Below are positions 3,001-36,698 of a stretch of 58,231 nt of DNA, piece by piece (the stretch's first letter is position 1; each line of letters opens with the position of its first letter). The stretch comes from an uncultured Anaerolineae bacterium. GTDB taxonomy: Bacteria > Chloroflexota > Anaerolineae > VGOG01. Under the pieces are notes generated by a model that ran no database searches, was not told the origin of the DNA, and worked only from the letters and a program-made list of their open reading frames with translations. The position numbers and the translations under genes are program-made. Location: positions 1 through 58,231 of the forward strand of contig CAYWWC010000001.1 in NCBI GenBank assembly GCA_964461615.1, written 5' to 3'.

Positions 3001-5330
3001 CCCTGACCGCAACAGACCTGTCCGGCAACACCTCAGAGTTTGGCGAACCGCTCGAAAGGCTGTGGGCCAGGCTGGTGGCTACGCACCTGGAGGCGACCCA
3101 GGTCATCCAAACGTTGGACCCGAACGAAGACGAAGTACCCCTGGTGGCCGGTAAGAGGACCTACGTCCGCTTCCACGTCCGCTCCGACACAGGCCAATCC
3201 GAGCCAGACGTCACGGCTCGCCTCAACGCCTTCCGAGACGGAGTGCAACTCGAGCCGCACAATCTGCGCCCAGCGAATCCAGCACGCACTATCACTGTGC
3301 AGACCAACCCCGATCGGGGGCAGCTCCAACATAGTTTCTTTTTCCGAGTACCGGACGAGTGGGGATCAGGCACAGTCACATTCCAGGCAGAGGTCAACCC
3401 GGAGGTCGCCATTCCTGAAGGGAATCTTGACGACAACATCATTACCAAGAGAGTCACGTTCCAGTCCCAGGATCCCCTATGTGTGGGGATGGTCCGCGTT
3501 CGCACCAGCCCCCAGACGGCTTCTATGGATGATCCTGGTTTCTGGGATATTATCGGCTGGCTCAGAGCAGCCTACCCGGTCCCACGGGTTCGGGTATACA
3601 ACACGCGTCATACGGTAGAGGAGCTGCAGACGTGCTGGAAGGAGGTCTGTGCCCCCCTCGTCGGTTGGCCTTGCGCTGACGTCCCCTACCCCTGCTATGG
3701 CCCTTACGAGATGCCCGATGATAGCAAGAAGGTATTGAAATCGCTCTTTGTGTTCAACACTTTTACCGACGATCCCGATGAATGTGACAGTCAGCTCTAT
3801 TACTTTGGCATGGTTCACCCCCGTCACGGGGCGGGAGCTGGCGGTGCTGGCTATCTGGATGGGGACGAAGCCTGGGGGTTCATGAACCTCAATCGTCTCG
3901 GAACCGGTGCCGCGTGGTATGCACCCCATGGCGGCGCGACCATGGCCCACGAAATCGGCCACAATCTCAACCGCAGACACGTCGATTGCGGTGGTCCAGA
4001 CAATGTTGATGGCGACTATCCTTACAACGAGTGCGACCTCGGCCCTAATAACGCCACATCCTACTATGGCTTCAAGGCTGGCGATGAGGCCGTGATCCCG
4101 CCTACCGAGGCAGGGGACCTGATGTCCTATGCCCACAGTGTGGGAAAGCCACGCTGGCCCTCGGACTACACCTACCGGGCGCTGTACAATCGTCTCCCAG
4201 GCAGGAGCACTCTCAGGGCCTCAGCCACAATGCCTGAGCAACTGGCTCAGGCTCAGGAGTTGTTGATCGCTACGGGGACCATCATCCCTGCCGAGGGCAC
4301 TGCCACGCTGGATTCCTTCTACCGGATGCCACAGGGTACCTTGAGCGCTGCCAATGTGGCCCGCGCGGCGGAGCGCCAGGCGCTGGTCGCCAGTGATGAG
4401 ACCTACAAGTTACAGTTGCTCGACGATGCAGACGGCGTACTGGCCGATCAGCCCTTCCAATTGCCGACCGTTATGGACAGTGAAGGGCCAGATAACCCAT
4501 TCATGGTGATCATGCCCTATCATCCCGACACGGCGCGTATTGTCTTGCTCCAAGATAGCGTGGAACTTGCATCGCGCGCGGTCAGTCCCCATGCACCCAG
4601 CGTTCACCTGATCTCACCCAACGGAGGTGAGACGATCACAGATACTCTCACTATCCAGTGGGAAGCCGAGGACGAAGACGATGTGGAAGATGACGTAGAA
4701 CTAATTCTTTACACCGTTCAGTATAGCTCCGATCAAGGAGAGACCTGGAAGACACTTACCACCAATCAGGTGACGACTACGTTCACTCTGGAGACAGAGA
4801 CCCAGCCTACCACTACATTGACCCTACGCCGTCACATGACACTTACCCTGAAGACAGATGGCCTGCCAGGAAGTCAGGGACAGGCTCTGATCCGGGTCAT
4901 CGGTACCGATGGGGTCAACACTACCATTGACCAGTCAGACCACCCCTTCACACTGGAAGCTCACCCACCGTTGGTTTACATTGTGGAGCCGGCCGATGGC
5001 GCGCTAATAGAGCCCGATTCGATGATCTTCCTCTCGGCATCCTCAATAGACGCCGAAGATGGCCCCCTGGCCAACGACGCCTATGTCTGGACGTCGGACC
5101 GCGATGGCTACCTGGGGGCTGGCGACGAGATTCTGGTATCCGATCTGAGCCGTGGCTGGCATCAGATCAGCGTTATCGGCGCCGACAGCGACGGCAGCAG
5201 CGCAACCGACGCCATCCAGGTCTTCGTCGGATATCGGGTGCATCTGCCCTTGATCCTGAAGAGTTCCCCAAGTTCAAGGGACACTGGAGGATACCCGTGT
5301 TATCCCTGCCAATTCGTGTCCTATGAGTAA
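57..5330 (+). CDS. Giant surface/secreted protein: Thr/Pro linker, long right-handed parallel beta-helix (PbH1/NosD-like) repeat region, metzincin-like zinc metalloprotease module, Ig/Fn3-like domains, C-terminal HLPLILK motif
   Basis: 1757-aa ORF. Dozens of ~22-aa repeats (NLISGN, GI.I, IGGN patterns) are typical of a beta-helix. Zinc site HEIGHNLNRRH is followed by a Met-turn-like DLMSYAH. The frame stays open to the left window edge, and the first residues are a TP linker with no SD or signal peptide. The true start is therefore probably upstream of the window. Confidence 0.8.
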   Translation: MRFARASTPTHSTTPTSTPTRSPTPTMTPLSPFTWMVDTTSDELEKISLRYALTYARDGDTIQFDLDVFPPGAPATIQLAAELPQIDQGNLIIDGSNAGVILDGSLLPAGTDGLAVASDSNTVTGLWIQDMPNNGISVLGKNNVIGGSIGVTGERAAAVGVSGPPVVPDMVISGNAGHGIEIQGNGNIVQGCYIGTDATGMAAVGNSLNGIHMSNGAQGNRVGGSVAGQGNLISGNQLVGIQLRDNKTEQNRIEGNYIGANITGIVPLGNQDRGVSIINLAQHNHIGGEDKFAGNLISGHGQAGIEILNAYFNSVIGNIIGPNITGRMPMGNGTGVSLSSTYENLIHGNLISANNGNGLYIYSGSENTITGNKIGADSTGDMALPNQQNGIYLTSGTHDNIIGGETGTDGNLISGNTLNGIRMAAGAGPPPHHNTIQGNKIGTNLAGDAALPNGRGGNAGGIYLMEGSHENLIGGISSDSGSCTGPCNLISGNGQDGVRVDGAGWGNTISGNFIGANVAGDAALGNAAVGIGLVRGAHENLVGGGAGAGNLISGNGATGVSIFDGSSSNTIAGNFIGANATGNAAMGNGGNGVSISDADRNVIGGAAGASCSATCNLISGNAGNGISITGADSYSNSVYGNFVGVNKGGDAAIPNGDSGVLVGFGAHDNQIGLPGNGNVLSGNELAGVLLTGAAANKNNVIGNIIGLDANISIPLPNFYGVYLSDGPQENRVGGSGMDEANTIAGNSSHGIVLTEEDTANNIIERNYIGTNEFSAGYLGNSGAGVFLTSGAHHNVIGLEDPRHGFGNIIIHNLGDGVAISHYAHHNQVTGNYIGGTVGGWGAGNFGHGVYIYLGANNNQVGGTSSFGDQGNIITANRGDGVRVDGGGSIGNTITRNSIYDNIWMGIELSDGGNMEFPPPTISDFGWDNAVALHKIEGSTCANCTVEIYSDAEDEGKLYEDSAVAAADGAFIVWVTRHARNFTLTATDLSGNTSEFGEPLERLWARLVATHLEATQVIQTLDPNEDEVPLVAGKRTYVRFHVRSDTGQSEPDVTARLNAFRDGVQLEPHNLRPANPARTITVQTNPDRGQLQHSFFFRVPDEWGSGTVTFQAEVNPEVAIPEGNLDDNIITKRVTFQSQDPLCVGMVRVRTSPQTASMDDPGFWDIIGWLRAAYPVPRVRVYNTRHTVEELQTCWKEVCAPLVGWPCADVPYPCYGPYEMPDDSKKVLKSLFVFNTFTDDPDECDSQLYYFGMVHPRHGAGAGGAGYLDGDEAWGFMNLNRLGTGAAWYAPHGGATMAHEIGHNLNRRHVDCGGPDNVDGDYPYNECDLGPNNATSYYGFKAGDEAVIPPTEAGDLMSYAHSVGKPRWPSDYTYRALYNRLPGRSTLRASATMPEQLAQAQELLIATGTIIPAEGTATLDSFYRMPQGTLSAANVARAAERQALVASDETYKLQLLDDADGVLADQPFQLPTVMDSEGPDNPFMVIMPYHPDTARIVLLQDSVELASRAVSPHAPSVHLISPNGGETITDTLTIQWEAEDEDDVEDDVELILYTVQYSSDQGETWKTLTTNQVTTTFTLETETQPTTTLTLRRHMTLTLKTDGLPGSQGQALIRVIGTDGVNTTIDQSDHPFTLEAHPPLVYIVEPADGALIEPDSMIFLSASSIDAEDGPLANDAYVWTSDRDGYLGAGDEILVSDLSRGWHQISVIGADSDGSSATDAIQVFVGYRVHLPLILKSSPSSRDTGGYPCYPCQFVSYE

Positions 5331-5394
5331 AGAGAGGGGTCATCTCCCGATCCGGAGGGGCGGCCCGTCCCCATAAACCCCAAAGGAGAGACCC

Positions 5395-8300
5395 ATGACC
5401 TTGCGCAAGTGGTTCGGCTCTATTATCTTAGTTATACTCCCCCTGTTGCTGATCCCCTCCCCCATCGCGGCAGATCCCTCATCGGAGCCGCCCTCCCTCC
5501 AGAAGATCCCCCTGGCCCTGCGGGTCAAGATCGAGCCGCTGGTTCTCAAAGAGCTGGACTCCGGGGAGAAGACCACCTACCTCGTCCACCTGACCCAGCA
5601 GGCCGACCTGGCCCCGGCGCAGCGCATCCAGGGGAAGCTGACCCGCCGCCAGGCGGTGGTCTCATCTCTCCAGGCCGTGGCCGAGAGGAGCCAGCGAGGC
5701 ATCCGGGCCTATCTGGACGGACAGCAGGCCTCAGGCCACGTCGAGGGATACATCCCCTTCTGGGTCTTCAACGGCCTGGCCGTGACCGGCGACCTGGAGA
5801 CCCTCCTGGCCCTGGCCGCCCGCCCCGAGGTAGATGCCATCCGCGCCAACCACACCCATCAACTGCCGAATCCCCCCTCCCCCTTCTTGTCCCCCCTCTG
5901 GGAGGGGGGAGAGGAAGAGGGGGGTGTCGAATGGAACATCGCCCAGGTGCGGGCCGATCAGGTGTGGAGCGATTTCGGCATCACTGGCCGCGGGGTGGTG
6001 GCGGCCAACATGGACACCGGCGCAGACTGGACCCACCCTGCCCTGCAGGGCAAATATCGTGGCGCCGACGGGAATCACGATTATAACTGGTTCGATTTCA
6101 CGGACACCTACCCTATCGCCCCTGATGATGGCTACGACCACGGCACCCACACCATGGGCACCATCGTGGGGGACGACGGGGGAGCGAATCAAATCGGCAT
6201 GGCTCCCGGCGCTCAATGGATCGCCGTCAAGGTCTTCGATGATTACGGCGTCACCGATGATGTGAAGATCCACCAGGGCTTTCAGTGGATGCTGGCCCCC
6301 ACCGACCTCAATGGAGAGAACCCGGATCCCAGCCAAGCCCCCGACGTGGTCAGCAACTCCTGGGGCAGCACGAACGGGGCCGATCCCACCTTCTGGCCCG
6401 ATGTGGCGGCCTGGCGGGCAGCGGGCATCTTCCCTGTTTTCGCCGCTGGCAACGAGGGAGAGATGGGCGATGGGTCGGTGGACTCACCGGGCAGCTTCCC
6501 CCACGCCGTGGCCGTGGGGGCCACGGACTCTGAGGACGCCATTGCCTACTTCAGTAGTCGGGGCCCCTCCTTCTGGGAGGAAACCAAGCCTGATGTCAGC
6601 GCGCCCGGCGTGGACATCCGCTCCAGCGTCCCCGGCGGTGGCTACGCAACCTCGGCCGGCACCTCCATGGCCACCCCCCACGTGGCGGGACTGGCGGCTC
6701 TGCTGCTGGAGGCCGCTTCGCTAACGGGGGCCGATCCCACTCTGACTTTGGACGACCTGGAGAACTTCATGAAGTACACCGCCCTCGATCTGGGCGAGTC
6801 CGGCCCCGACAACGACTACGGCGCCGGGCGGATTGACGCCTACGATGCCGTCCGTTGGGCCCTGGGGGCGGGGAAGCTCTACGGCACGGTGACCGCTTCA
6901 AACGCGATGGGCGAAGGTCTCCTGGGGTTGGGCGAAGGTCTCCCGACCGAGCCCCCTCGCGCTGGTATTCCTGGAGCCACGGTCAGCGGCGTCAGCCGGA
7001 CCGGCGACGTGCCAACGGAGTTGGCCTTTGTCGCTACCGCCGACGCCACGGGAACCTACGCCGTGAGCGTGCCGGGGGGCTTCTACGACGTCACAGCCAG
7101 CGCGTTCGGCTACCTCTCGGCCACGGTGCAGGGGGTGGAGGTGGTCACGGGCTACATGTCCATGCGGGACCTGGCCCTGAAGCCGGCCCCAACGGGAACC
7201 CTCAGCGGCCGGGTGACGGAGGGGGGGACGGGGGAGCCGCTGGCGGCCACGATCCGCGCCCTGGACACCCCAGCCTGGACGACGGCTGACGCCGCTTCAT
7301 CACATGTACGTAGCGGCGCCTTCGGTAACGGGTTCTACAGCCTGGCCTTGCCTGTGGGCAGCTACACGGTAGAGGCGAGCGTGAGGGGGCATCAGATCCA
7401 GCGGGCGGTGGTCAGCATCGCTGAGGGAACGGTGACCAGCCAGGACTTCGCCCTGCCCTTGGCCCCCTCCCTCCTGCTGGTGGACGCCGACGCCTGGCTG
7501 GGGGAGAATGTCACTCTTTACTATCAGTACGCTTTGGACGAGGCTGGCTACCTCTACGATACGCGCCTCATCACCGACACGATCTATATGCCCACCGCCG
7601 AGGAGCTGGGGGCCTACGACGTCGTCATCTGGGCCCACCCCTGGCGGTCGCCGGGCTACATCGGCGCCGACCAGGCCCTGATGGATTACCTGGACAGTGG
7701 GGGGCAGCTTCTCATCGCCGGGCAGGACATCGGCTACTGGGATGACTACCAGGAATACGCCTTGTCCTTCTACACCAATTATCTGCACGCCAACTTCGTC
7801 GGAGAGTCACAGACCCTGGAGCCGCTGATTGGGGCCGACATCTTAGAAGGATTGACCCTCACCCTCAACGATACCTACACCTACAAGAACACGGGCTTCT
7901 GTACCTTGTTCGGCTGCTTCTATCCCGACGAGATCGAGCCTGCCGACGATGCTGTGGGGGGAGGACTTCCCGCGCCCATCTTGGCCTATCCCGATGGGAG
8001 CATCCGGGGGATCAAGGCCGAATCACCCCCTTACCGCGTGATCTACTTCGGGTTCGGCCTGGAGAGCGTCGGCCCCCGCGATGCACTGGCCCAAACGATG
8101 GAGCGGGCTATCACCTGGCTCACCCTACCTTCCCTGACCAAGACGGTGGACAGGGAAGAGGTCGTTCCGGGCGAGGTACTGACCTACACCCTGACCCTGA
8201 ACAACATCGGCGCAACCGACCTGCCCGGCGTCAGCCTGACCGACCCGATCCCGGAGCACACGACCTACGTCCCCAACAGCGCCACCGGCGGCGCGACCTA

Positions 8301-11300
8301 CAATCCAGATCTCGACCACATTCAGTGGAGCGGCGCCCTGCCGGCCACGACCCAGATGACCTTCACCTTCCAGGCGGTGGTCGAGGAGCCCCTGGCCGGG
8401 GGGACGGTCATCACCAACACAGCCACCCTGGACGACGGGCAGGCCCACACCCTCCAGGCCAGCGCAACCACAACGGTGATGGGTCCCGACCTGACGAGCT
8501 CGACCAAGACGACGGACAAGGCTCTGGCCCTGGCTGGCGACACCCTGACCTACGCCATAACCCTGATGAACACAGGCTCTCTCAGCGCCACCGGAGTCAG
8601 CCTGGTGGATCCTATTCCTGAGAACACGATCTACGTGCCCGGCAGCGTCACCGGCGGGGCGGTCTACAACGCGGCCCTTGATCGGATCGAGTGGACGGGG
8701 GATGTGTCGGCGAGGAGCCAGCAGGAGGAAGGGAGCTACATCTGGACTGACAGCGACACGCCCGGCGGCCCAGTCTACGACTGGATGGACATCACGGGGA
8801 CAGGTGCCCCCATCACGGGCCTGGGGGACGACACCAACGCCGGCCCCTTCCCCATCGGGTTCTCCTTCCCCTTCTACGGAAATGAGTTCACCCAGTTCTA
8901 CTTGAGCACCAATGGCTTCCTGAGCCTGTCGCCCATCTCCGGCCGCAACTTCAGCAACCTGGCTCTGCCTGCCCCCTTGGCTCCGGGCAACCTGCTGGCT
9001 CCCTTCTGGGATGACCTCAACTTCTCCACAAGTGGGGAGGCCTACTATTGGAGCGGCGTCCTGAGCGACTCGACTGAGCTCGCCGAAGTCCTGTCGAAGG
9101 GCAACAGCGCGGACGCCCTGGTGATCTCCTACGTGGAGGCTCCCCGCTACGGCGACGGTGGCCCCTACACCTTCCAGGTCATCCTGCGGGCCGACGGCTC
9201 CATCACTTACCAGTACCAGTCCATGACTGAGCTGCTGGATAACGCCACCATCGGCGTTCAGAACGCCGACGGCGCCCAGGGGCTGACCATCGCCCACAAT
9301 CAGACCTACGTCCACGACGAGCTGGCGGTGCTCATCTCCCCCCCTCCCCCTCCTGTTCCACCGCCCTCCATCACTTTCCAGGTGAAGATTGACGAGTCTC
9401 TGCCCGCCAACACGGTTATCACCAACACAGCCTTCATCATTGTTACTATTGAGGACACAGGGCTCAGCCACCAGCGCAAGGCCACGACCATCGTCAACGC
9501 CGTGGACCTGACCGGCTCGACCAAGACGGCGGACCCTGCTGTGGTCGCCTCCGGCGATGTTTTGACCTACACCGTCGTCCTGCGCAACACGGGGAGCGGC
9601 GATGCCCAGGTCAGTGTCACCGATCCCCTCCCCGAGCACACGACCTACGTGCCGGAGAGCGCCACGGGCGGGGCAATGTACAACCCGGCCCTGGATCAGA
9701 TCGAGTGGACAGGGGCCGTGTCTGCACAGGCGGAGAGGGCCTTCTCTTTCCAGGTCAGCTTGGAGAGCCCCCTGCCCACTGGGCTGGTCGTCACCAACAC
9801 AGCCGCCATTGATGATGGCCTGCATCGGCCCTTCACTCGGACCGTCGCCGCCACGGTGCAAAGCTCGGATCTGGGGACCTCGGTCAAGACGGTGGACAAG
9901 GCTATAGCCCTGGCTGGCGACACCCTGACCTACGCCATCGCCCTGAAGAACACAGGCTCTATCAACGCCACCGGTGTCAGCCTGGTGGACCCCATTCCAG
10001 CCCACACGGCCTACGTGCCCGGTAGCGTCACCGGCGGGGCGGTCTACAACGCGGCCCTGGCCCAGATCGAGTGGACGGGAGCTGTGCCAATAGAACGGGG
10101 CTATACTTGGACCGACAGCGATCAGCCCGCAGGCCCAACCTATGCCTGGGTGGACATCGCGGGAAGTCCTCCTCACGACATTGGCACGCCCATCACCAAC
10201 CTGGGCGACGACGCCAACGTCGGCCCCTTCTCCATTGGCTTTCCCTTTCCCTTCTACGGGAATAGCTTCACCACCTTCCGCGTATGCTCCAACGGCTTCC
10301 TGAGCCTGACCAGTTCTGCCACAAGCTACAGCAATTCGCCCTTGCCCAGCGGCGAGGAGCCCTTCAACCTCATAGCCCCCTTCTGGGATGACCTCACCCT
10401 CTCCTCAAGCGGAGAGGCATATTATTGGAGCAACAACCAGGACACCCTGGTGGTCTCCTACGTGGGGGTGCCCCGCTACGCCAGCGGCGGCCCCTACACC
10501 TTCCAGGTCATCCTGCGGGCCGATGGCTCCATCACCTACCAGTACCAGTCTATGGTTGCGCGTCTGGATGAGGCCACCATCGGCATCCAGAGCGCCGACG
10601 GCGCCCAGGGTCTGACCGTCGCTTACAACGAATCCTACGTGCACGACGGGTTAGCTGTTCTAATCTCACCTCCTTCCTCATCGCGCGCCATCGCCTTCCA
10701 GGTGAAGATCGCCGACCTGCTGCCGACGGAGACGATCATCACCAACGCGGCGATCATTGACGATGGGCGAGGCGCGACCTACGAGCGCCAGGCGACGACC
10801 TGGGTCAACACCATCGAGTTGGAAGGCTCGACCAAGAATGTGGATAAAAACGTGGCCGTCCCCGGCGAGGCGCTGACCTACACCCTGACCCTGCGCAACG
10901 TCGGGACCGCCGACGCTGCGGATGTGGCCGTCGTAGACCCCATCCCCGCCCACGCCGTCTACCAGCCGGGCAGCGCCACCGGTGGGGCGATCTACGATGA
11001 TGTCGCCAACCGGATTCTGTGGAGCGGTGCTGTGCCGAGCGGTAGCCAGGCCTCATTCTCCTTCGCCGTGCGGACCGTGCCCCCCCTGTCAAATGGCATA
11101 GTCGTCGTCAACACAGCCACCATTGACGATGGCGTGCACCTGCCCTTCACCCGGGTCGCCACTACGACGATAACGGCCCCAGATCTGAGCCCCTCGGAGA
11201 AGCGGGTCAGCTCGACTACCGTGAGTCCCGGTCAGGTGTTGACCTACACCATCCTGGTGAAGAACGGGGGCAGCGGCCCGGCAATGGTGGCCCTGACCGA

Positions 11301-11646
11301 CACTCTTCCCGCTGAGGTCGTTTACGTCCCCGGCTCGGCCTGGGCGGGCAGCGGCGGGCCAGCCGTCTACCATGCCGTGGAGGAGGGCTTCCCGCACCCA
11401 TCGCTCACCTGGAGCGGGCGAGTGCCCGTCAGCGCCATGGCCACCGTCCGCTTCGCAGTGCAGGCCACAGGCCGTGGAGGAGGACTTCCCGCGCCCATCA
11501 CCAACAGAGTGCTTCTCGACGACGGAGCGGGCAACGTGATTGAGAGGCGTGTGACGACGGGGGGCGAGGAGCACAGGCTCTTCTTGCCTCTCCTTATGCA
11601 TCCGTGGGAATTCAGCGTACAGCCCTTCGGCAAGCCATCGTGGTGA
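5395..11646 (+). CDS. Secreted S8 (subtilisin-family) serine protease fused to CarboxypepD_reg-like, DUF11-type and NIDO-like beta-sandwich modules; FLPLLMH motif near the C-terminus
   Basis: SD AAGGAG lies 6 nt before the ATG. Signal peptide is MTLRKWFGSIILVILPLLLIPSPIAA. Catalytic motifs NMDTGAD, HGTHTMGT and GTSMATPHVAG are present. Repeated modules follow the pattern LTYT..N.G....V.L.D.IP..T.YVPGS.TGG. Confidence 0.9.
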   Translation: MTLRKWFGSIILVILPLLLIPSPIAADPSSEPPSLQKIPLALRVKIEPLVLKELDSGEKTTYLVHLTQQADLAPAQRIQGKLTRRQAVVSSLQAVAERSQRGIRAYLDGQQASGHVEGYIPFWVFNGLAVTGDLETLLALAARPEVDAIRANHTHQLPNPPSPFLSPLWEGGEEEGGVEWNIAQVRADQVWSDFGITGRGVVAANMDTGADWTHPALQGKYRGADGNHDYNWFDFTDTYPIAPDDGYDHGTHTMGTIVGDDGGANQIGMAPGAQWIAVKVFDDYGVTDDVKIHQGFQWMLAPTDLNGENPDPSQAPDVVSNSWGSTNGADPTFWPDVAAWRAAGIFPVFAAGNEGEMGDGSVDSPGSFPHAVAVGATDSEDAIAYFSSRGPSFWEETKPDVSAPGVDIRSSVPGGGYATSAGTSMATPHVAGLAALLLEAASLTGADPTLTLDDLENFMKYTALDLGESGPDNDYGAGRIDAYDAVRWALGAGKLYGTVTASNAMGEGLLGLGEGLPTEPPRAGIPGATVSGVSRTGDVPTELAFVATADATGTYAVSVPGGFYDVTASAFGYLSATVQGVEVVTGYMSMRDLALKPAPTGTLSGRVTEGGTGEPLAATIRALDTPAWTTADAASSHVRSGAFGNGFYSLALPVGSYTVEASVRGHQIQRAVVSIAEGTVTSQDFALPLAPSLLLVDADAWLGENVTLYYQYALDEAGYLYDTRLITDTIYMPTAEELGAYDVVIWAHPWRSPGYIGADQALMDYLDSGGQLLIAGQDIGYWDDYQEYALSFYTNYLHANFVGESQTLEPLIGADILEGLTLTLNDTYTYKNTGFCTLFGCFYPDEIEPADDAVGGGLPAPILAYPDGSIRGIKAESPPYRVIYFGFGLESVGPRDALAQTMERAITWLTLPSLTKTVDREEVVPGEVLTYTLTLNNIGATDLPGVSLTDPIPEHTTYVPNSATGGATYNPDLDHIQWSGALPATTQMTFTFQAVVEEPLAGGTVITNTATLDDGQAHTLQASATTTVMGPDLTSSTKTTDKALALAGDTLTYAITLMNTGSLSATGVSLVDPIPENTIYVPGSVTGGAVYNAALDRIEWTGDVSARSQQEEGSYIWTDSDTPGGPVYDWMDITGTGAPITGLGDDTNAGPFPIGFSFPFYGNEFTQFYLSTNGFLSLSPISGRNFSNLALPAPLAPGNLLAPFWDDLNFSTSGEAYYWSGVLSDSTELAEVLSKGNSADALVISYVEAPRYGDGGPYTFQVILRADGSITYQYQSMTELLDNATIGVQNADGAQGLTIAHNQTYVHDELAVLISPPPPPVPPPSITFQVKIDESLPANTVITNTAFIIVTIEDTGLSHQRKATTIVNAVDLTGSTKTADPAVVASGDVLTYTVVLRNTGSGDAQVSVTDPLPEHTTYVPESATGGAMYNPALDQIEWTGAVSAQAERAFSFQVSLESPLPTGLVVTNTAAIDDGLHRPFTRTVAATVQSSDLGTSVKTVDKAIALAGDTLTYAIALKNTGSINATGVSLVDPIPAHTAYVPGSVTGGAVYNAALAQIEWTGAVPIERGYTWTDSDQPAGPTYAWVDIAGSPPHDIGTPITNLGDDANVGPFSIGFPFPFYGNSFTTFRVCSNGFLSLTSSATSYSNSPLPSGEEPFNLIAPFWDDLTLSSSGEAYYWSNNQDTLVVSYVGVPRYASGGPYTFQVILRADGSITYQYQSMVARLDEATIGIQSADGAQGLTVAYNESYVHDGLAVLISPPSSSRAIAFQVKIADLLPTETIITNAAIIDDGRGATYERQATTWVNTIELEGSTKNVDKNVAVPGEALTYTLTLRNVGTADAADVAVVDPIPAHAVYQPGSATGGAIYDDVANRILWSGAVPSGSQASFSFAVRTVPPLSNGIVVVNTATIDDGVHLPFTRVATTTITAPDLSPSEKRVSSTTVSPGQVLTYTILVKNGGSGPAMVALTDTLPAEVVYVPGSAWAGSGGPAVYHAVEEGFPHPSLTWSGRVPVSAMATVRFAVQATGRGGGLPAPITNRVLLDDGAGNVIERRVTTGGEEHRLFLPLLMHPWEFSVQPFGKPSW
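8488..11200 (+). repeat. Tandem intragenic duplication of a ~1380-bp (460-aa) module (DUF11 - NIDO-like - DUF11) inside the S8 protease gene
   Basis: 8488-8700 and 9868-10080 are near-identical at the DNA level (GACACCCTGACCTACGCC...GTCACCGGCGGGGCGGTCTACAACGCGGCCC). The rest aligns at the protein level (FPFYGN.FT.F..S.NGFLSL, PYTFQVILRADGSITYQYQSM in both copies). The end coordinate is approximate. Confidence 0.7.
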
Positions 11647-12380: not shown

Positions 12381-12384
12381 GTAG

Positions 12385-19417: not shown

Positions 19418-19507
19418 CTCCCTACGATGCTCTGATGGTTATCAAGTTAATCCCCTCCACGATGTCCTGACGTTTAGCCTGTTAGTCTCTCCACGATGTG
19501 CTGATGG
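19418..19507 (+). repeat. Three direct repeats CYCC(Y)ACGATGNNCTGA(Y)G spaced 34-35 bp, overlapping the annotated start of the next ORF
   Basis: The copies are CTCCCTACGATGCTCTGATGG (19418-19438), CCTCCACGATGTCCTGACG (19454-19472) and CTCTCCACGATGTGCTGATGG (19487-19507). Confidence 0.6.
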
Positions 19508-22704: not shown

Positions 22705-23116
22705 GGTGCGCACGCGCGTCCTCTTCGAGCCCACACTTAACTATCAGTCAGCCGGCCTCGTCTTCTGGCAGGATGCCGACCACTACCTGTCGTTCGACCG
22801 TGCCTACTGCGACGCCGAACCTCCGGCTTGCGTGGGCAACGGCATCTACTTCGACCTCATCGAAGGCGGGAGCTCTGTCGGGGACAACTTCAGCACGACG
22901 ACATCCAGTCAGAACGAGGCATACCTGCGGATGGTTCGACAGGGCTTGACATACACGGGCTACTATAGCGAGGATGGCGTGAACTGGACCTTGATCGGAA
23001 GCCACACTCCAAGTGGGTCAGTGGCTCCGTGGGGGGTGGGCTTGACGGCTGGTGCCGACTTGCAGGACACGTGCATCCCAGCCGACTTCGATTTCTTCGA
23101 GCTCAGCCAGGACTAG
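22685..23116 (+). pseudogene. Out-of-frame 3' continuation (ConA-like lectin/glucanase, DUF1349-type domain) of ORF 19498-22704
   Basis: GDFEVRTRVLFEPTLNYQSAGLVFWQDADHYLSF is the core of the domain whose N-terminal strand (FRDDFSEPTLDPAWSWLNEDPADWSLT) ends the previous ORF. The frames differ by +1 and overlap by 20 nt. Confidence 0.6.
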
Positions 23117-30178: not shown

Positions 30179-30212
30179 CGAACCCGAAAACGTGTTGGGT
30201 GGTTATTACTCA

Positions 30213-30330
30213 GGCTGGCGGTTGAAACCGCGCCTGGAGAGCTGAAGCTGACTGTCCACCTACGTGGACAGCGACGTCCACGCAGGTGGACGCCCGGCTG
30301 AAAGCCCTGGAGAGGCGATTTCAATCGCGG
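30213..30330. repeat. Cluster of short GC-rich REP-like hairpins
   Basis: TGTCCAC-ctac-GTGGACA (30253-30270) and CGTCCAC-gcag-GTGGACG (30275-30292) lie in tandem, with GCGGTT..AACCGC and GCGATT..AATCGC minihairpins alongside. Confidence 0.6.
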
Positions 30331-30367
30331 TAAAGGATAGCCTGAGCAGTTACGTTGGGTGTGACAG

Positions 30368-30399
30368 AAGCGCGCTAGACAGTAGCGCGCTTTTGTGTT
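30368..30399 (+). terminator. Intrinsic terminator, overlapped by an extended -10 (TGTTATAAT, 30396-30404) for the next gene
   Basis: AAGCGCGCTA-gacag-TAGCGCGCTT is followed by TTTGTGTT. Confidence 0.65.
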
Positions 30400-30458
30400 A
30401 TAATCGGGTTGTCGGCTCAAAGTGCCCGGTAGCAGAAGGCAAGAAAGGCAGGTGCATC

Positions 30459-32201
30459 ATGAAAAAGATGATTCGTTTCGGCCTCTTGTTTCTCGTCATC
30501 CTCGTTTTCATCTCCCCGGTGGTCGGGGCTGAGGGGCCGCCCACCGCTCAAGGGCCGCCCACCATTACCGAGGTGGAGTCCCAGGTGACCGTCCTGGAGG
30601 ACTCTAGCCTCGATGTCAAGTACCGCTTGACCTTCTGGGAGAACGAGACGCGGGACAAGATCACCACTATGGGCCCCTTCGACGCCGGCCATCGCATTCT
30701 GGACGCCCACATTGAGCACGACGGAACGCAGACGACCGTGAGCCTGAGCAGCAAGGGCGGCGGCTTCTACACCGTTCCCTTCGGTCTGACCACTAAGGCT
30801 GATCGGGAGTACACCGTCCAGGTGCACTGCCGGGTAGAGCGTGCCCTGGACATAACAGAGATTGACGGGGTGGAGCATCGGGTGCTGGCCTGGGCGCCCA
30901 TCCAGTGGAGTCTGTCCATTGGCGAGCAGATCGTGACCTTCATTCTGCCCATCGAGCTGCCGGCCGACGTCACCCAGCCGGAGCAGGTGACCGATGGGCT
31001 GGTGGACCGGGCGGCTATCGTGGTTGACGACGCCAACGTCTCCTCTTTCGACCGCTGGGTCTACTATCCCACCCCCGATGAGGCCACTGGCAAGAACTGG
31101 CTCTCCATCTACATCTCTAAGAAGAGCGTTCCCCCAAACTACCACTTCACCCCCAAAGTCTATATCCCCGGCCGCTACTTCGCCGAGCTGCCGGTCGAGA
31201 CCGTCGCTCCCGTCGAGGAGTTCGCTCCCACCGAGGAGCCTGAGCCTGCACCCAGCCTTTCCCTCCTGCCCTTTCTATGTATCTTCGGACTTCTGGGGCT
31301 GTTCGTAGCCGGGTTCATCATCTTCATCATCTTCCGCCGGGTTTCGCCCAAGGCTGCGCCGGAGGAGTACGAGGCCCCGGAGATCGAGATCGAGACCTTT
31401 GCACAGCCGGGCATGGTGCCAGACCTGGAAGCCATCGAGGCGGCTCTCTACATCGGCGACACGGCCAAGGTAATCACCCTGGTGATCATGGCCCTCTCCC
31501 AGCGGGACGTGCTGACGGTGCTCAACAAGCGGCCTCTGCAACTGGAGGTGACCAACCCCGACTTGGAGATGGCTGACTACGAGCGGGCACTGGTGACGGG
31601 CATCGCCGACGACGGCACTTTGCCCCAGTCAACCATCGAGCGGGTGATGGCCTTGCTCTTGGCCCAGTTGCAGACCAAGATGTGGAACGCCGACCCTGAG
31701 GCCACCCGCGATACCTATCGGCGGCGGGCCGAGGATGCCTGGGACGACTACCGCCGACAGGATCCCGCCCGCCGCTGGGGCTGGGGTCACCCGACGTTCC
31801 CCTGGATCATCCTCGCCCCCAGCTACCGGCCCTACCGCCCTGTGCCCGTCGCCGTCCGTCGCGGCCCCGCGGCTCTGGACACGCTGCGCGAATCCCCGTT
31901 GGTCGGCGCCGCCGATCAGATGGCTGGCGTATTAGAGGGCGTGGCCGACAACATCACTACCCGTGCCGAGGGGCTGGCCACATCCGCCACTCACTTCCTG
32001 GACCGCGTGGCCGGGCGGGAGGATGCCGGCTACGACGCCTGCCACTCCGCGTGCCACAGCGCCTGTCACTCCGCCTGCGTCCACGATGCTTGCCACAGCG
32101 CCTGCGTCCACGACGCCTGTCACAGCGCCTGCCACAGCGCCTGCGTCTGCCACAGTGCCTGTCACTCCGCCTGTCACAGCGCCTGTGTGAGCAGCTTTTA
32201 G
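30459..32201 (+). CDS. Single-pass membrane protein (DUF2207-like layout) with a C-terminal (CHSA)n Cys/His-repeat tail
   Basis: ATG at 30459 gives signal peptide MKKMIRFGLLFLVILVFISPVVGA. A TM helix LLPFLCIFGLLGLFVAGFIIFIIF is followed by RRVSPK, which by positive-inside places the C-terminus in the cytoplasm. The tail reads ACHSACHSACHSACVHDACHSACVHDACHSACHSACVCHSACHSACHSACVSSF. Confidence 0.75.
   Translation: MKKMIRFGLLFLVILVFISPVVGAEGPPTAQGPPTITEVESQVTVLEDSSLDVKYRLTFWENETRDKITTMGPFDAGHRILDAHIEHDGTQTTVSLSSKGGGFYTVPFGLTTKADREYTVQVHCRVERALDITEIDGVEHRVLAWAPIQWSLSIGEQIVTFILPIELPADVTQPEQVTDGLVDRAAIVVDDANVSSFDRWVYYPTPDEATGKNWLSIYISKKSVPPNYHFTPKVYIPGRYFAELPVETVAPVEEFAPTEEPEPAPSLSLLPFLCIFGLLGLFVAGFIIFIIFRRVSPKAAPEEYEAPEIEIETFAQPGMVPDLEAIEAALYIGDTAKVITLVIMALSQRDVLTVLNKRPLQLEVTNPDLEMADYERALVTGIADDGTLPQSTIERVMALLLAQLQTKMWNADPEATRDTYRRRAEDAWDDYRRQDPARRWGWGHPTFPWIILAPSYRPYRPVPVAVRRGPAALDTLRESPLVGAADQMAGVLEGVADNITTRAEGLATSATHFLDRVAGREDAGYDACHSACHSACHSACVHDACHSACVHDACHSACHSACVCHSACHSACHSACVSSF
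32040..32186 (+). repeat. 12-bp-period TGY-CAC-(TCC/AGY)-GCN coding repeat (CHSA units)
   Basis: There are 11 CHSA units interrupted by CVHDA and CV variants. Ser is encoded by both TCC and AGC/AGT. Confidence 0.9.
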
Positions 32202-32234
32202 GGCATTGATGCACTGGACGGAACGGCAGCACGT

Positions 32235-33326
32235 ATGTTGGGTGAAATAGAAATGCGAATAGCCACAGCCTACCAACAATCACTTTTCCCAGACCTGACT
32301 GCCGAGTTCCCTTCCACCCGCTATCAAGGCAGCAAAGCGAAGCTCGTTGATTGGATCTGGGAGCAAATCGCCGATTTAGATTTCACGACCTGCCTGGACG
32401 CCTTTGGCGGCACGGGTGCGGTGGCCTACCGCTTGAAGCAGGCGGGTAAGCGGGTTACGTATAACGACTTGCTCCGTTTCAACTATTACATTGGTCTGGC
32501 GCTGATTGAGAACAACCAGGTACGCCTCAGCCCTGAGGAAGTGGACTGGCTTCTCATGAGGCATCCAGAGATCGCGTATCCGCGTTTCGTCCAGGACAGT
32601 TTCCCTGACATCTATTTCACTGATGAGGAGAATGCCTGGATTGACCAGACGATCACCAACATTCGCCAACTCACCGATCCATACAAGTCTGCTTTGGCGT
32701 TCTTCGCCCTGTGTCAAGCCTGCATCATCAAGCGGCCCTATAATCTGTTTCATCGAAAAAACCTCTATATTCGCCTCGCAGAAGTGGAGCGCTCGTTTGG
32801 AAACAAGACCACCTGGGATAGGCCCTTCGAGGAGTGGTTTCACATTTTCGCCATAGAGGCCAATCGAGCCGTCTTTGACAATGGCCAGGTGAATCGTGCC
32901 CTTAATTGCGGGGCTGTTGATGTGCCGGGTGAGTATGATCTGGTTTATATAGACACACCTTACATCTCCAAAAAGGGCACGCCTGTTGACTACTTTGCGT
33001 TCTATCACTTCTTAGAGGGTTTGACAATGTACGATGAGTGGGGCAAACATATAGACCTCAAATCAAAGCATCGCCGTTTGAAGCTGCAACCAAGTGAGTG
33101 GACAGATAAGAGACGAATTCGCGCGGCTTTTGACCAGTTGTTTCGCAGATATCAGGAGAGTATTCTGGTCGTCTCTTATCGCAGCGATGGCATACCTTCT
33201 GAGTCAAAGCTGGTGTCTTTGCTCAAGCGATACAAGCGCCACGTGCGCGCTGAGCATTTTGGCCCATACAAATACGTCCTGTCCACCAACACCAAGTCTA
33301 AAGAAATTCTTCTGATCGGCACATAA
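32235..33326 (+). CDS. N6-adenine DNA methyltransferase (Dam/D12 class), partner of the adjacent EcoRV-family endonuclease
   Basis: STRYQGSKAKLVDWI, CLDAFGGTGAV (AdoMet motif) and LVYIDTPY (DPPY-type catalytic motif) are present. Confidence 0.85.
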   Translation: MLGEIEMRIATAYQQSLFPDLTAEFPSTRYQGSKAKLVDWIWEQIADLDFTTCLDAFGGTGAVAYRLKQAGKRVTYNDLLRFNYYIGLALIENNQVRLSPEEVDWLLMRHPEIAYPRFVQDSFPDIYFTDEENAWIDQTITNIRQLTDPYKSALAFFALCQACIIKRPYNLFHRKNLYIRLAEVERSFGNKTTWDRPFEEWFHIFAIEANRAVFDNGQVNRALNCGAVDVPGEYDLVYIDTPYISKKGTPVDYFAFYHFLEGLTMYDEWGKHIDLKSKHRRLKLQPSEWTDKRRIRAAFDQLFRRYQESILVVSYRSDGIPSESKLVSLLKRYKRHVRAEHFGPYKYVLSTNTKSKEILLIGT

Positions 33327-33349
33327 CTCTACCGAGGAGTTGAGCAGAG

Positions 33350-34138
33350 ATGATAGTAGATGATTTCAGAGAGAGCCTGTTGAGCCACCTGGACGAGTTC
33401 GGACGCACCCTTGCCACGGATGCCGGGGATTGGGTCGTCAAAGGGTTCATAGATGTCTACCGGAATATCTACACCATCTCGGTAGATACGAAGGTTGTAT
33501 CCAAGATCATCGAGTTGATGCTCTTTCCGGTCATCTCCCAGTTTGCAGCCGAACACGATTACAAAATGGTGCTCAGCGAATACCAGAATCACTATCCAGA
33601 CATCAGTTTCATGGCACCAGATGGGACGAAGATCGCCTTCGACCTCAAGAGTACATATCGCAGGAGTGCAAATACAGTGAGTGGTTTCACGCTTGGTGCA
33701 TTCACAGGCTATTTCCGCCGGCGGCAATCAACCAAGAATATCACCTTCCCGTACGAACAGTACGCCGCGCACTTTGTCCTGGGCATCATCTACAGCCGCA
33801 GCGACGAGGCTGTGGATGAGCGCCGGGTCTATACACTGGAGGACCTCCGGGACATTGTGTCGGTGGTCAAGGACTTCACTCTTCTGCTTCAGGAGAAGTG
33901 GCGAATTGCCAATGACCGGCCTGGGAGTGGAAACACGAAAAACATCGGTTCGGCGAGAAATATCGAGGCACTCGTTGAGGGTAAGGGGCCATTTGCCCGA
34001 TACGGAGAAGAAGTGTTCGACGACTACTGGATGAATTACTTGACAAATGATATGGCACTAGCCATTGATTCGGCTATCCCTTATCGAAACCTTGAGGATT
34101 ATTGGGAGTGGCGTGATCGTGTCGGGCGGCGAAGATAG
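33350..34138 (+). CDS. Type IIP restriction endonuclease, EcoRV family (probable GATATC specificity)
   Basis: 262 aa with SD GAGGAG. It aligns along its length with my recollection of R.EcoRV: VDTKVVSKIIELMLFPVISQFAAEHDY vs SDTKVLSTIFELFSRPIINKIAEKHGY; QNHYPDISF vs QNHYPDFTL; KIAFDLKSTY vs KIAIDIKTTY (PD..D-x-K catalytic site); GSGNTKNIGS vs GSGNTTNIGS. Confidence 0.85.
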   Translation: MIVDDFRESLLSHLDEFGRTLATDAGDWVVKGFIDVYRNIYTISVDTKVVSKIIELMLFPVISQFAAEHDYKMVLSEYQNHYPDISFMAPDGTKIAFDLKSTYRRSANTVSGFTLGAFTGYFRRRQSTKNITFPYEQYAAHFVLGIIYSRSDEAVDERRVYTLEDLRDIVSVVKDFTLLLQEKWRIANDRPGSGNTKNIGSARNIEALVEGKGPFARYGEEVFDDYWMNYLTNDMALAIDSAIPYRNLEDYWEWRDRVGRRR

Positions 34139-34164
34139 AATGCGCCGCGGTAAGGATCGCTTAA

Positions 34165-34404
34165 ATGGACTACAGTGGCAATGCCATCCACGCCAACGAC
34201 CGCAGCGGTGATCCAGCCTTCGCCCTCGATGACTACTACCTGACCTCCAGCTCGGCGGCCATTGACGCCGGAGTGGATGCTGGCGTCACGACGGACATTG
34301 ACGGCGACGCCCGTCCCTGGGGTGAAGGCTATGACATCGGCGCTGACGAGCTCAGGCAGCGGTACGTCTACCTTCCTCTCGTGATGAAGAACCTCGCTCA
34401 CTGA
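34165..34404 (+). pseudogene. 3' fragment of a beta-helix (pectate-lyase-fold) surface protein gene retaining the YLPLVMK C-terminal motif
   Basis: DPAFALDDYYLTSSSAAIDAGVDAGVTTDIDGDARPWGEGYDIGADE is the usual C-terminal cap of large beta-helix proteins. Only 79 aa remain, there is no SD, and an in-frame TAA lies directly before the ATG. Confidence 0.6.
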
Positions 34405-34461
34405 CACGCAATGGCACGCGTTCTATGGATGGTGGCAACTTCGATAATAAGGAGGCATTCG

Positions 34462-35994
34462 ATGAAGATCAGGTATCTTCTGTTTGCACTGGCTGTGGGT
34501 GTAGGGACAGCTCTTGCTTTGATGGGGATGCTGGCCGCTGCCGGCTGGCTCTATGATCTGGCGAGGGGCGAGCAGCACGTGAGCATCCGCGGTCAGAACG
34601 CCGCTGACTGGATGGGGGGCAGCCTCGCCAGCGCCGACATCAACGGCGACGGTTACGACGACCTGATCCTGGGCGCAACCGGTGTTGAAGCCGGCTCCAT
34701 CTCTAATGCGGGCGCTGCCTACGTCCTCTTTGGGCGTCCCGAAATTCCGGCCGGTATGGACATAGGCGACGCGGCGGACGTCACTTTCCTGGGAGCGGCG
34801 ACAAACGACTACACCGGGCAGATTGTCGCCAGCGGCAACTTCAACGGGGATGGATATGCCGATTTGCTCATCGCTTCTCGATGGGCCGACGTGGTCTCCG
34901 GAAGTGGCGTGATCACGGACGCTGGAAAGGTGTATCTGGTTTTGGGGCGTCCTGCCTTTTCTCCCACGGTACACCTCTCCACAGTCGCCGATGTGATTTT
35001 CAATGGAGCTGAGGTGAACGATTTCACCGGCCAGGGGTTGGGCACCGGCGACATCAACAACGATGGTTACGATGACTTCATCATCGGGGCATATCACTGG
35101 CACGACTCGAGAGGGATAATCTACGTCCTCTTGGGCCCTCCGCCCCTCACCGCGACTGTTGACATCAGCGGCATCGCCGATGCGACTTTCCAGGGTATAT
35201 CAGAGAATGACAGCCTGGGCTATTCCCCAGCCAGCGGCGACTTCAACGGCGATGGCTGTGATGACCTGTTCCTGGGCGCAATGAACGCCAGCTCGGCGGG
35301 GCGGCAACGGGCCGGAATCGTCTATGTGGTGTTAGGTTGCGAAATACCTTACGGCGCCCACACTATCAGCGACGCAGCTGACCTGACCCTCCAGGGGGGT
35401 GAGGAAGACCGGACTGGCTGGAGCCTGGCCAGCGGGGACGTCAACAACGACGGCTACGACGATCTCCTCGTTGCGGCTCCCTTTGCCGACCTGGGCGGAG
35501 ACGATTCAGGGGCTGTTTACGTGGTCTTGGGCGGACAGGACCTGGCCGGGACTTTGGGTATCAGGACTGCTGCCAGTATCACCATCACAGGTGAGGCGGC
35601 CGGGGATAACCTGGGACGTTGGGGGTTGAGTAGTGGGGATGTCAATGGCGACGGCTACGACGACGTGATCATTGGTGCTCTCTACGCTGACCCTTCTCCT
35701 TCACGCCCTGATGCTGGCAAAGCCTACGTGGTATTGGGAAGGCCAGACTTTCCTCAGACGATCCCGTTGAGCACCGCTGCCGATGTGACTATCCTTGGGG
35801 CAGCGGCCGGCGACAGACTTGGGGATGGCGTGGGCAGCGGTGATCTCAACCACGATGGCCGCAAAGAAATCATTGTCGCGGCGCCTGCTGCCGACCCTGT
35901 CAGCGGTCGGGAGGATGCCGGCCAGGCTTATGTTTTCTACTACGGACTTTCGAAGACATATCTATACCTTCCGCTGGTGCTGAAGGGCCAGTGA
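34462..35994 (+). CDS. FG-GAP/VCBS (integrin-alpha-like) repeat protein with a C-terminal YLPLVLK motif
   Basis: ATG at 34462 lies 6 nt after AAGGAGG and is followed by an N-terminal TM/signal segment. Eight or more repeats follow the pattern G.AGD..G.S.ASGD.NGDGYDDL.IGA. Confidence 0.9.
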   Translation: MKIRYLLFALAVGVGTALALMGMLAAAGWLYDLARGEQHVSIRGQNAADWMGGSLASADINGDGYDDLILGATGVEAGSISNAGAAYVLFGRPEIPAGMDIGDAADVTFLGAATNDYTGQIVASGNFNGDGYADLLIASRWADVVSGSGVITDAGKVYLVLGRPAFSPTVHLSTVADVIFNGAEVNDFTGQGLGTGDINNDGYDDFIIGAYHWHDSRGIIYVLLGPPPLTATVDISGIADATFQGISENDSLGYSPASGDFNGDGCDDLFLGAMNASSAGRQRAGIVYVVLGCEIPYGAHTISDAADLTLQGGEEDRTGWSLASGDVNNDGYDDLLVAAPFADLGGDDSGAVYVVLGGQDLAGTLGIRTAASITITGEAAGDNLGRWGLSSGDVNGDGYDDVIIGALYADPSPSRPDAGKAYVVLGRPDFPQTIPLSTAADVTILGAAAGDRLGDGVGSGDLNHDGRKEIIVAAPAADPVSGREDAGQAYVFYYGLSKTYLYLPLVLKGQ

Positions 35995-36077
35995 GATAGG
36001 CGCGGTAGTAAAATATCAGTCAGACGCCACTTGCCACAAGCTGGCGGGATGATAGACAGGGGGTAAAGATCCTGAAA

Positions 36078-36698
36078 TTGCAACGTTCAACCATAAAACA
36101 CTTGATATCTATTGCTCTTGTTCTCTGCCTGAGCGCACTGCTGGCAAGTGTCGTCTATGCAGGTATTACCAGCAACGAGCACATGAGCGACACCCACCAC
36201 GGGCCGTCAGTGACCCAATTCCCCTCGGGGATATCTGCCGTCTACGTGGTCTTCGATTACAGCGATATGCATAACGAGGAGATCACTATAAAGGTTTGGA
36301 GCCCGATCGGGGAGCTTCTCTTCGAGCATATTCAGGTTTACTCAGACTCGGGCACGAAGTCCATCGAGGCCCCAGGGCCGGAAGGCGGAGCTTTCCCCGA
36401 TGGCCTGTATGCCACCAACTTTTACAGAGGCATGCTTTCCTACAAAACTCTCATCTGGGCCGTGGGCGAAGTGACACTCCCTACCCCCACGGCGACGGGT
36501 ACAGCTACGCCCACCGCGACTCCGACAACTACGCCGACTAGCACACCCACACCCACGCCCACACCAACTGCCACCGCTACTCCGACCGACACACCCATTC
36601 CGACACCAACTGCCACCGCCACAACAACTCCAACCGATACAATAACTCCAATTCCCAGTTACGAAGTTTGCCTGCCGATCATCGTGAAGAACTATTGA
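36078..36698 (+). CDS. Secreted small beta-domain protein with a ~60-aa Thr/Pro stalk and a C-terminal CLPIIVKNY motif
   Basis: TTG start gives signal peptide IKHLISIALVLCLSALLASVVYAG. The stop lies 5 nt before the radical SAM start codon. Confidence 0.7.
   Translation: MQRSTIKHLISIALVLCLSALLASVVYAGITSNEHMSDTHHGPSVTQFPSGISAVYVVFDYSDMHNEEITIKVWSPIGELLFEHIQVYSDSGTKSIEAPGPEGGAFPDGLYATNFYRGMLSYKTLIWAVGEVTLPTPTATGTATPTATPTTTPTSTPTPTPTPTATATPTDTPIPTPTATATTTPTDTITPIPSYEVCLPIIVKNY

Follow-up and report, generated by a model that had tools for sequence, protein, structure and literature searches.

The YLP box on six unrelated proteins of an uncultured Anaerolineae bacterium: a catalogued putative sorting motif as a candidate surface-retention tag in Chloroflexota

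Chloroflexota abound in sediments, hot springs and wastewater sludge, and the retention of proteins on their unusual envelope is poorly understood. Here we describe a short peptide motif, the YLP box (for example YRVYLPLVLRNY), in 58,231 nucleotides of an uncultured Anaerolineae bacterium (assembly GCA_964461615.1, contig CAYWWC010000001.1, positions 1 to 58,231; the whole of this stretch is referred to as the window), where six carrier proteins with differing domains are encoded within 37 kb. The motif is real and restricted to the Chloroflexota, where it is carried by many unrelated proteins of the Anaerolineae and Chloroflexia, usually 0-3 residues before the stop codon and on proteins that begin with a signal peptide, and it occupies the slot that established anchoring modules fill in homologous proteins. 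We favour, with about even confidence and on the strength of sequence comparison, the explanation that the YLP box would act as a surface retention or sorting tag of Sec-exported Chloroflexota proteins, recognised beyond the cytoplasmic membrane in the form of an exposed linear peptide, with non-covalent docking as the preferred mode. The motif itself is already known as a catalogued putative motif, to which the window adds six divergent members.

All six peptides of the original prediction, which had proposed them as a candidate C-terminal sorting or processing tag, were located in open reading frames (ORFs) of the forward strand, with coordinates as it had reported. Carrier A (57-5330, at least 1757 residues) combines a beta-helix, a zincin-like HEIGHNLNRRH segment of the HExxH type and an Ig-like domain (Pfam Beta_helix, NosD and Big_7), and its reading frame continues without a stop from base 57 back to the window edge; its box, YRVHLPLILK (5232-5261; GYRVHLPLILK with the preceding Gly), is followed by an atypical tail. 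Carrier B (5395-11646) is an S8 subtilase of 2083 residues (Pfam Peptidase_S8 and six DUF11 domains) whose signal peptide is visible as an N-terminal hydrophobic segment, and whose degenerate box, HRLFLPLLMH (11572-11601), precedes the tail PWEFSVQPFGKPSW. Carrier C (19498-22704, 1068 residues) has a Thr/Pro/Arg linker, no Pfam match and an internal box, YEIYLPLVLR (22141-22170). Carrier D (34165-34404) is a 79-codon 3' remnant of a choice-of-anchor Q gene of the CSLREA-type beta-helix family (38.1 bits to NF041518, choice_anch_Q, cutoff 25) with just 70 codons open upstream of the box; the latter reads YVYLPLVMK (34363-34389), then NLAH and the stop, and the whole end reads YVYLPLVMKNLAH. Carrier E (34462-35994, 510 residues) consists of a signal peptide and a seven-bladed FG-GAP beta-propeller (seven Pfam FG-GAP matches) and ends in YLYLPLVLK (35959-35985) plus GQ. 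Carrier F (36078-36698, about 200 residues, no Pfam match) consists of a signal peptide, a domain of about 100 residues, a Thr/Pro stalk of about 60 residues which the box closes, as had been proposed, and the box YEVCLPIIVK (36660-36689) plus NY, with Cys where Tyr is usual; its end reads YEVCLPIIVKNY. The tails after the box measure 2 residues in E and F, 4 in D, 14 in B and 22 in A, with 177 residues following the internal box of C. Signal-peptide-like N-termini were seen in B, E and F, the N-terminus of A lies outside the window, D is truncated and C lacks a visible signal peptide where its first start codon stands. The Pfam matches, differing from carrier to carrier, bear out the proposed lack of common domains; the 'crystallin' domain ascribed to C was not reproduced.

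The six copies lie far beyond chance expectation. The pattern [LIVMFYWHC]LP[LIVM]3[KRH] occurs six times among 30 plausible gene products of the window, against 0.069 expected from within-protein shuffles, and five times within 25 residues of a C-terminus, against 0.003 expected; none of 5000 shuffles reached either value. Synonymous codons vary among the copies (CTG/TTG/CTT/CTC for Leu, CCC/CCT/CCG for Pro), which indicates conservation at the level of the protein rather than a repeat at the level of the DNA, and a repeat of the latter kind was rejected on this ground. No hydrophobic stretch of transmembrane (TM) length follows the box in any of the six window copies, the 2-22-residue tails of A, B, D, E and F having been checked, and no Arg/Lys cluster stands at the extreme C-terminus of the window copies, where a single Lys, Arg or His closes the box. 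The stated difference from the LPXTG, PEP-CTERM and GlyGly-CTERM signals, all of which have a TM helix plus basic tail, was thus upheld for the window tails.

The motif had been taken to be unnamed, and this part of the original prediction was wrong. Under the description "YLP-box putative sorting motif-containing protein", NCBIfam release 20 lists two models: NF050076 (sort_motif_YLP), which has 11 positions and a cutoff of 15 bits, and NF053834 (ultrashort_CTERM), which has 10 positions and a cutoff of 10 bits. Carrier D exceeds both cutoffs (15.5 and 13.9 bits), C falls below the first (14.2 bits) and above the second (14.0 bits), A and E lie just below the cutoff of NF050076 (13.1-13.5 and 12.0 bits) and are not reported by NF053834, and B and F match neither; many weak matches of this length are discarded by the HMMER filters. 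Canonical copies from other genomes, such as VYLPLVLRNY and VYLPLVLK, exceed the cutoffs of both models, at 18.1-18.8 bits for NF050076 and 15.4-15.6 bits for NF053834. No other NCBIfam sorting-domain model matches the window tails, and no paper that mentions "YLP-box", or the peptide in a bacterial context, was found in the literature. The prediction had named a curated model with a known partner enzyme as a finding that would tell against it; a model exists, under a name that says 'putative', and a partner enzyme was found neither in our searches nor in the window.

Homologues link the weakly scoring copies to this family, and judged by these alignments A, B, E and F are divergent YLP-box copies, with His, Phe or Cys for Tyr, Ile or Met for Leu or Val, His as the basic residue and, in A and B, longer tails. 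A canonical box stands at the aligned position in homologues or orthologues of A, B, E and F and in the D family. Homologues of the last Ig-like domain of A end in VG-x(3-6)-YLPLVLR-x(0-5) and the stop, for example VGQSQLYLPLVLRNR, VGYRMYLPLIFK or LYLPLVLRNR, and colinear homologues of B end in QRLFLPFIMKAY (79% identical), LLLLPIMKDWEF (66%), YNVYLPLLMKGAE and RIYLPLTVKQGAP. All full-length orthologues of E (79-86% identity) retain YL[YHF]LPLVLKG[QH] directly before the stop, and members of the D family read DIGAYE-x(6-10)-YLPLVLK. The orthologue of F in a related genome (GCA_964390805.1, locus L254; L and P numbers denote loci and proteins from public data) ends in SYEVYLPIILKNY, so that the Cys of F is a substitution of Tyr, and a homologue 42% identical to F in L057 ends in YKIYLPLVLKKQESSKP. 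The extensions that give A and B their long tails are atypical. After the box, C and the B family share a Trp-Glu pattern (PWEF, DWEF-stop, DHEW-stop, NYEW-stop and GWES; window 11602-11643 and 22171-22185, and P0276, P0279, P0366 and P0370), which suggests a sub-type distinct from the common N-[YH] tail.

Scans of public data extend these observations to the lineage. An exact scan of species-representative genomes for YLPLVLK returned at least 120 loci, and the matches listed comprise 32 loci in Chloroflexota, in the Anaerolineae (including Caldilineaceae and Thermoflexales) and the Chloroflexia (including Herpetosiphonaceae), and 88 in other taxa. Among these matches, the box lies in a long ORF within 7 residues of the stop at 24 of the 32 Chloroflexota loci compared with 2 of the 88 others (Fisher p = 3e-16); the two exceptions are contigs of metagenome-assembled genomes, and the remainder are chance matches in short or wrong-frame ORFs. 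The box is therefore restricted to one lineage, the Chloroflexota; cultured carriers include Caldilinea, Kallotenue and Herpetosiphon, and the Dehalococcoidia apparently lack it. The window, a metagenome contig, has its closest named relatives among the Anaerolineae or Chloroflexota. A control scan of viral contigs gave ten exact matches, of which just one had the C-terminal layout. Position relative to the stop is also constrained, with 89 of 107 copies in long ORFs lying 0-7 residues before it. A metagenome scan for VYLPLVLR gave 117 non-redundant copies, with tails of 0-3 residues after the Arg in 82 of them (0 residues, n = 9; 1, n = 12; 2, n = 34; 3, n = 27; 4-9, n = 11; 11 or more, n = 22). 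At the positions that the scan left free, Tyr is preferred at -2, Arg or Lys at -1, Asn at +1 and Tyr or His at +2, and the consensus approximates Y-[RK]-V-Y-L-P-L-V-L-[RK]-N-[YH], a linear motif of about 10-13 residues. The same bias appears in copies of a looser pattern in the same loci that the scan had not selected, 26 of 37 lying within 5 residues of the stop where 4% would be expected (p = 5e-28). Signal-peptide-like N-termini, called by a simple hydrophobicity rule and not by SignalP, occur in 59 of 71 complete carriers, compared with 95 of 575 other ORFs of at least 250 residues in the same loci (p = 1e-29). The C-terminal enrichment and the co-occurrence with signal peptides, which the original prediction had proposed as checks, were thus both found, and its view of the motif as a portable module on unrelated exported proteins is borne out by the window carriers and by these scans.

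The description as a C-terminal tag holds in part. The bias towards the C-terminus is strong; however, about 15-20% of copies are internal and continue, often through a Pro-rich linker, into further domains (CARDB, vWA, CBM-like, LamG/DUF1349-like, PPC, LTD and caspase-like), among which no common domain was found. In at least three independent proteins, the box even stands 20-60 residues after the signal peptide, ahead of a catalytic domain: two encode a signal peptide, a short or Pro-rich segment, YLPLVL[KR] and a CAP/SCP domain (L012, complement strand, about 7110-7740 from the reverse end; L134, 7266-8380) and the third has the same arrangement with a GHL10-like domain (L156, 715-2150). 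Such near-N-terminal boxes are a mirror-image placement that the model name 'ultrashort_CTERM' does not imply. A separate observation concerns about 20 of the 117 metagenome copies, which belong to a family of proteins of about 95 residues in which a signal peptide is followed by a Gly-rich unit (Y.L..T.GQ...G...Y.L.GGFW.G) and, about 8 residues later, by VYLPLVLRN (L129, L131, L138, L145, L149, L150, L154, L162, L165, L183, L187, L190, L198, L200, L208, L210, L218, L223, L224 and L240); their genes often adjoin those of large fibre-like proteins in which YadA-like repeats are combined with an S74 chaperone-like domain.

The strongest argument for a retention or sorting tag is that the box stands in the position of established surface-anchoring and sorting modules. 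In the choice-of-anchor Q (CSLREA) family, the element that follows the conserved terminal DIGAYE varies from member to member. Members of the Chloroflexota type, roughly 55 of the best 120 matches, have a YLP-type box 6-10 residues after it, whereas other members have LPETG or LPLTG with a TM helix and Arg, an IPTL-CTERM-like IPT[VL]S.WGL with a TM helix and Arg, other TM/Arg tails or dockerin-like repeats. In the FG-GAP family of carrier E, the same slot holds the box, TM/basic tails, the Por_Secre_tail domain of the type IX secretion system (T9SS) or a dockerin, with Por_Secre_tail replacing the box in the distant E homologues P0184 and P0234, and one homologue of the A family has a TM helix and RRKR instead of the box. 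The anatomy of the carriers fits an exposed peptide. An AlphaFold2 model of E, built from an alignment of 32 sequences, has a mean predicted local distance difference test (pLDDT) score of 91 over the propeller and scores below 50 over residues 497-510, which include the box; as modelled, the box of E is an unstructured tail outside the fold, though it is conserved. The box of F, like those of carriers in L057, L108, L137 and L176, is set apart from any domain by a Thr/Pro stalk, the same layout as the wall-spanning regions ahead of LPXTG signals, and one that mirrors the lipobox-plus-stalk protein encoded at 23541 of the window. The choice-of-anchor Q protein P0102 (L243, 329-2146) carries AYLPVVIK, then 12 residues, a TM helix and RWKRRG, the sole such case among 421 proteins, and its box sits in the place of the 'signature motif' of a full tripartite signal. 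We rejected P0102 as an ancestral form, since it is the only case among these proteins and lies on a context-free contig of 2.3 kb.

The box was compared with several known systems. Tripartite sorting domains consist of a motif, a TM helix and an Arg cluster, in this order (bioRxiv 10.1101/2023.06.07.544157). The YLP box resembles the LPXTG/sortase, PEP-CTERM/exosortase, GlyGly-CTERM/rhombosortase, MYXO-CTERM/myxosortase and IPTL-CTERM systems in being a short signature near the C-terminus of many unrelated signal-peptide-bearing proteins of one lineage, in occupying the same slot of homologous proteins and in being often preceded by a Pro/Thr-rich stalk. It differs from them in lacking the TM helix and the Arg cluster, in having only 0-5 residues after it and in its possible placement at the N-terminus or between domains. 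Like the dockerins of the dockerin-cohesin system, which fill the same C-terminal slot in some homologues, it is portable on diverse exported proteins, and placement at the N-terminus or internally would be compatible with docking of this non-covalent kind. A dockerin is a folded domain of about 60-70 residues that binds calcium and has a known cohesin partner; the box, in contrast, is about 10 residues long and unstructured in the E model. The T9SS C-terminal domain, of about 80-100 residues (Pfam Por_Secre_tail, TIGR04183), was not matched in any window carrier. Like the donor-strand peptides of chaperone-usher systems and of the Pam pili of the candidate phyla radiation (CPR; bioRxiv 10.64898/2026.03.03.709456), the box is a short hydrophobic strand, placed terminally or in a linker between domains, that could complete the beta-sheet of another protein. 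In donor-strand exchange pilins, such a strand completes the fold of the neighbour, with an incomplete Ig-like acceptor domain and a dedicated chaperone. The likeness is one of analogy only; the central Pro of the box is unusual for a donor strand, and neither an acceptor domain nor a chaperone for such a scheme was found. The proteins of about 95 residues gave a weak match to the model of PamT, the CPR pilus tip (33 bits, cutoff 240), partly over the signal peptide, and this lead, far below threshold, was kept as an analogy only.

We propose that, after Sec-dependent export, the box would stay exposed and unstructured as a hydrophobic peptide, frequently placed at the end of a Thr/Pro stalk nearest the cell, and that a putative partner outside the cytoplasmic membrane would bind this linear peptide, the simplest mode being beta-strand docking, for example by addition to an anchored receptor. 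Processing by a membrane-embedded enzyme of the sortase, exosortase or rhombosortase type would not be involved, because these enzymes depend on a TM helix and a basic cluster for holding the substrate in the membrane. Our reasons for favouring docking are the absence of a membrane-retention element, the tolerance of N-terminal and internal positions and the predicted lack of structure in the box on its own, and a box directly after a signal peptide or between two domains is easier to reconcile with a bound peptide than with a tail lost by cleavage. More tentatively, it is possible that the YLP box represents a Chloroflexota-specific anchoring of a new kind, in which a TM-less and position-tolerant tag would be captured by a putative extracytoplasmic receptor or enzyme unrelated to sortases, exosortases, rhombosortases, CPBP proteases and the T9SS.

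Several findings weigh against surface retention by docking. An all-against-all BLAST of the ORFs at about 150 loci found no recurrent enzyme or receptor gene beside YLP genes; recurrence among neighbours was confined to other YLP proteins, BTAD/TPR regulators (three loci) and the large fibre-like proteins beside the small YLP family. Pfam and NCBIfam scans of all neighbours in the 58-kb window likewise found no sorting enzyme, be it a sortase, exosortase, rhombosortase or CPBP protease, and the genes identified there encode transporters, RNase J, a PMT_2/GT2 pair, an EcoRV restriction-modification system, a radical SAM/SPASM protein, a BTAD/TPR regulator and TldD/PmbA, beside uncharacterised proteins in which no signature of a sorting enzyme was seen. 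The window carrier C and carriers of L065 and L075 have no signal peptide at the first start codon. Finally, the tight spacing to the stop and the preferences for Asn at +1 and Tyr or His at +2 suggest that a free C-terminus matters, and a processing enzyme would account for an apparent need of this kind at least as well as simple docking would.

A classical processed signal is the main alternative, although we consider it less likely than docking. A dedicated protease or transpeptidase would cut at or just after the box, for instance after the Lys/Arg or the next Asn, link the C-terminus covalently to the wall or a lipid and discard the 0-400 residues downstream. The signals that share its slot, LPXTG, the T9SS C-terminal domain and the TM/Arg signals, are all cleaved (the tripartite panel of bioRxiv 10.1101/2023.06.07.544157), the predominance of 0-3-residue tails and the non-random residues at +1 and +2 would fit such a cut, internal boxes often precede accessory domains (PPC, CARDB) of kinds that other systems remove after secretion, and P0102 couples AYLPVVIK to a TM helix and RWKRRG. 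However, none of the six window tails offers a TM helix or an Arg cluster to a membrane enzyme, and P0102 alone does so elsewhere among the 421 proteins. Moreover, cleavage at a box right after the signal peptide would anchor only a short peptide while setting the enzyme domain free, neither the basic residue nor the Asn at +1 is more than a preference, and the neighbourhoods of about 150 YLP loci yielded no candidate enzyme. An action without any specific partner, in which the hydrophobic peptide would enter the membrane from its outer face or self-associate the surface proteins into a matrix or sheath, seems improbable to us. The 7-8 consecutive hydrophobic residues have Tyr and Lys/Arg, residues typical of interfaces, on either side, and the box is tolerated at different positions in proteins, but its conservation (the invariant-like Leu-Pro, Tyr at -1 and -3, Asn at +1) exceeds plain hydrophobicity. 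By our own estimate, made without a tool, 7 residues with a Pro in the middle would partition only weakly into membranes, and the strong bias towards the extreme C-terminus would be left unexplained.

Two further explanations carry far less weight. That the box is the substrate or recognition site of the PqqD-radical SAM-SPASM enzyme encoded after F, and hence a site of peptide modification, appears very improbable. The gene starts 5 nucleotides past the stop of F and the gene order is kept in a relative, whereas no such neighbour exists at the other five carriers, at the about 150 YLP loci or beside the distant F homologue in L057. The Cys of F is Tyr in the orthologue, and radical SAM enzymes are cytoplasmic while the carriers are large exported proteins. 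An origin by chance, from biased composition or from a repeated DNA element whose translation happens to give the peptide has nothing but the shortness of the motif in its favour and is refuted by the present results: the excess over the shuffled expectation, the copy-specific codons, the lineage-specific C-terminal layout, the viral control and the conservation in orthologues.

The box marks an apparently large set of Chloroflexota surface proteins, including proteases, beta-helix proteins, propellers and proteins with adhesin-like repeats. To our knowledge, every characterised small C-terminal sorting signal has a membrane-spanning part, and the YLP box has none; identification of its partner would therefore reveal a different mode of retaining exported proteins and would provide a simple sequence rule for predicting the surface proteome of Chloroflexota, and capture of a TM-less tag by a receptor or enzyme would, if true, constitute a new class of bacterial surface-protein sorting. 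As the motif is already part of the NCBI annotation models, the scan finding itself adds little beyond supporting detail; new here are the slot shared with known anchors, the N-terminal and internal positions and the unstructured tail in the E model.

The genes around the carriers gave additional observations. Directly upstream of the remnant D lies an EcoRV-type restriction-modification cassette (32235-34138, forward strand; Pfam MethyltransfD12 and Endonuc-EcoRV), with a GC content of 0.53 against about 0.59 in the flanking DNA; it stands outside the motif system and is the likely cause of the truncation of D. In L254, genes for a ParE toxin, a PBECR2/DUF2283 pair and an N6_N4 methyltransferase occupy the corresponding slot ahead of E, with no D remnant, and this slot (window 32235-34404) looks like a hot spot for mobile defence and addiction cassettes. 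Downstream of F (window 36078-39825; L254 8385-12493), the PqqD-radical SAM-SPASM gene (about 36704-38092) is followed by genes for a coiled-coil protein of about 400 residues, a 164-residue protein with two TM helices and a zinc ribbon, and a BTAD/AAA/TPR regulator. The order from F through the radical SAM, coiled-coil and zinc ribbon genes to the regulator is kept whole in L254, and no small precursor peptide was seen at this cluster. The end of a BTAD/AAA/TPR regulator gene, of a cytoplasmic protein, is also the site of a seventh match to the loose pattern, at 43439 (window 43298-43474, ending in LALILPIILKALTHP), which was rejected; it overlaps the last part of that gene in the +1 frame, lacks the aromatic residues of the motif and is probably due to chance. 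Homologous regulator genes also adjoin YLP genes in L038 and L060.

The end of C (window 22141-23116) overlaps, in another frame, an ORF of 143 residues with a DUF1349/ConA-like domain (22685-23116) that begins at the end of C (FRDDFSEPTLDPAWSW). Two independent contigs from the Joint Genome Institute (JGI) show the same gene structure and the same break, which is therefore no error of assembly but either a genuine frameshift or pseudogene, or else two genes. At 24266-27873, a gene for a PMT_2-type membrane glycosyltransferase (856 residues) overlaps a GT2 gene, a pair which resembles a protein O-mannosylation system and which could glycosylate the Thr/Pro stalks of A, C, F and the lipoprotein at 23541. 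A membrane protein encoded at 30264-32201 (L254 1550-3274), with a weak match to TIGR04222, ends in a run of ACHS/ACVH repeats (CHSACHSACHSACVHDACHSAC) that is kept in the relative and may bind metal.

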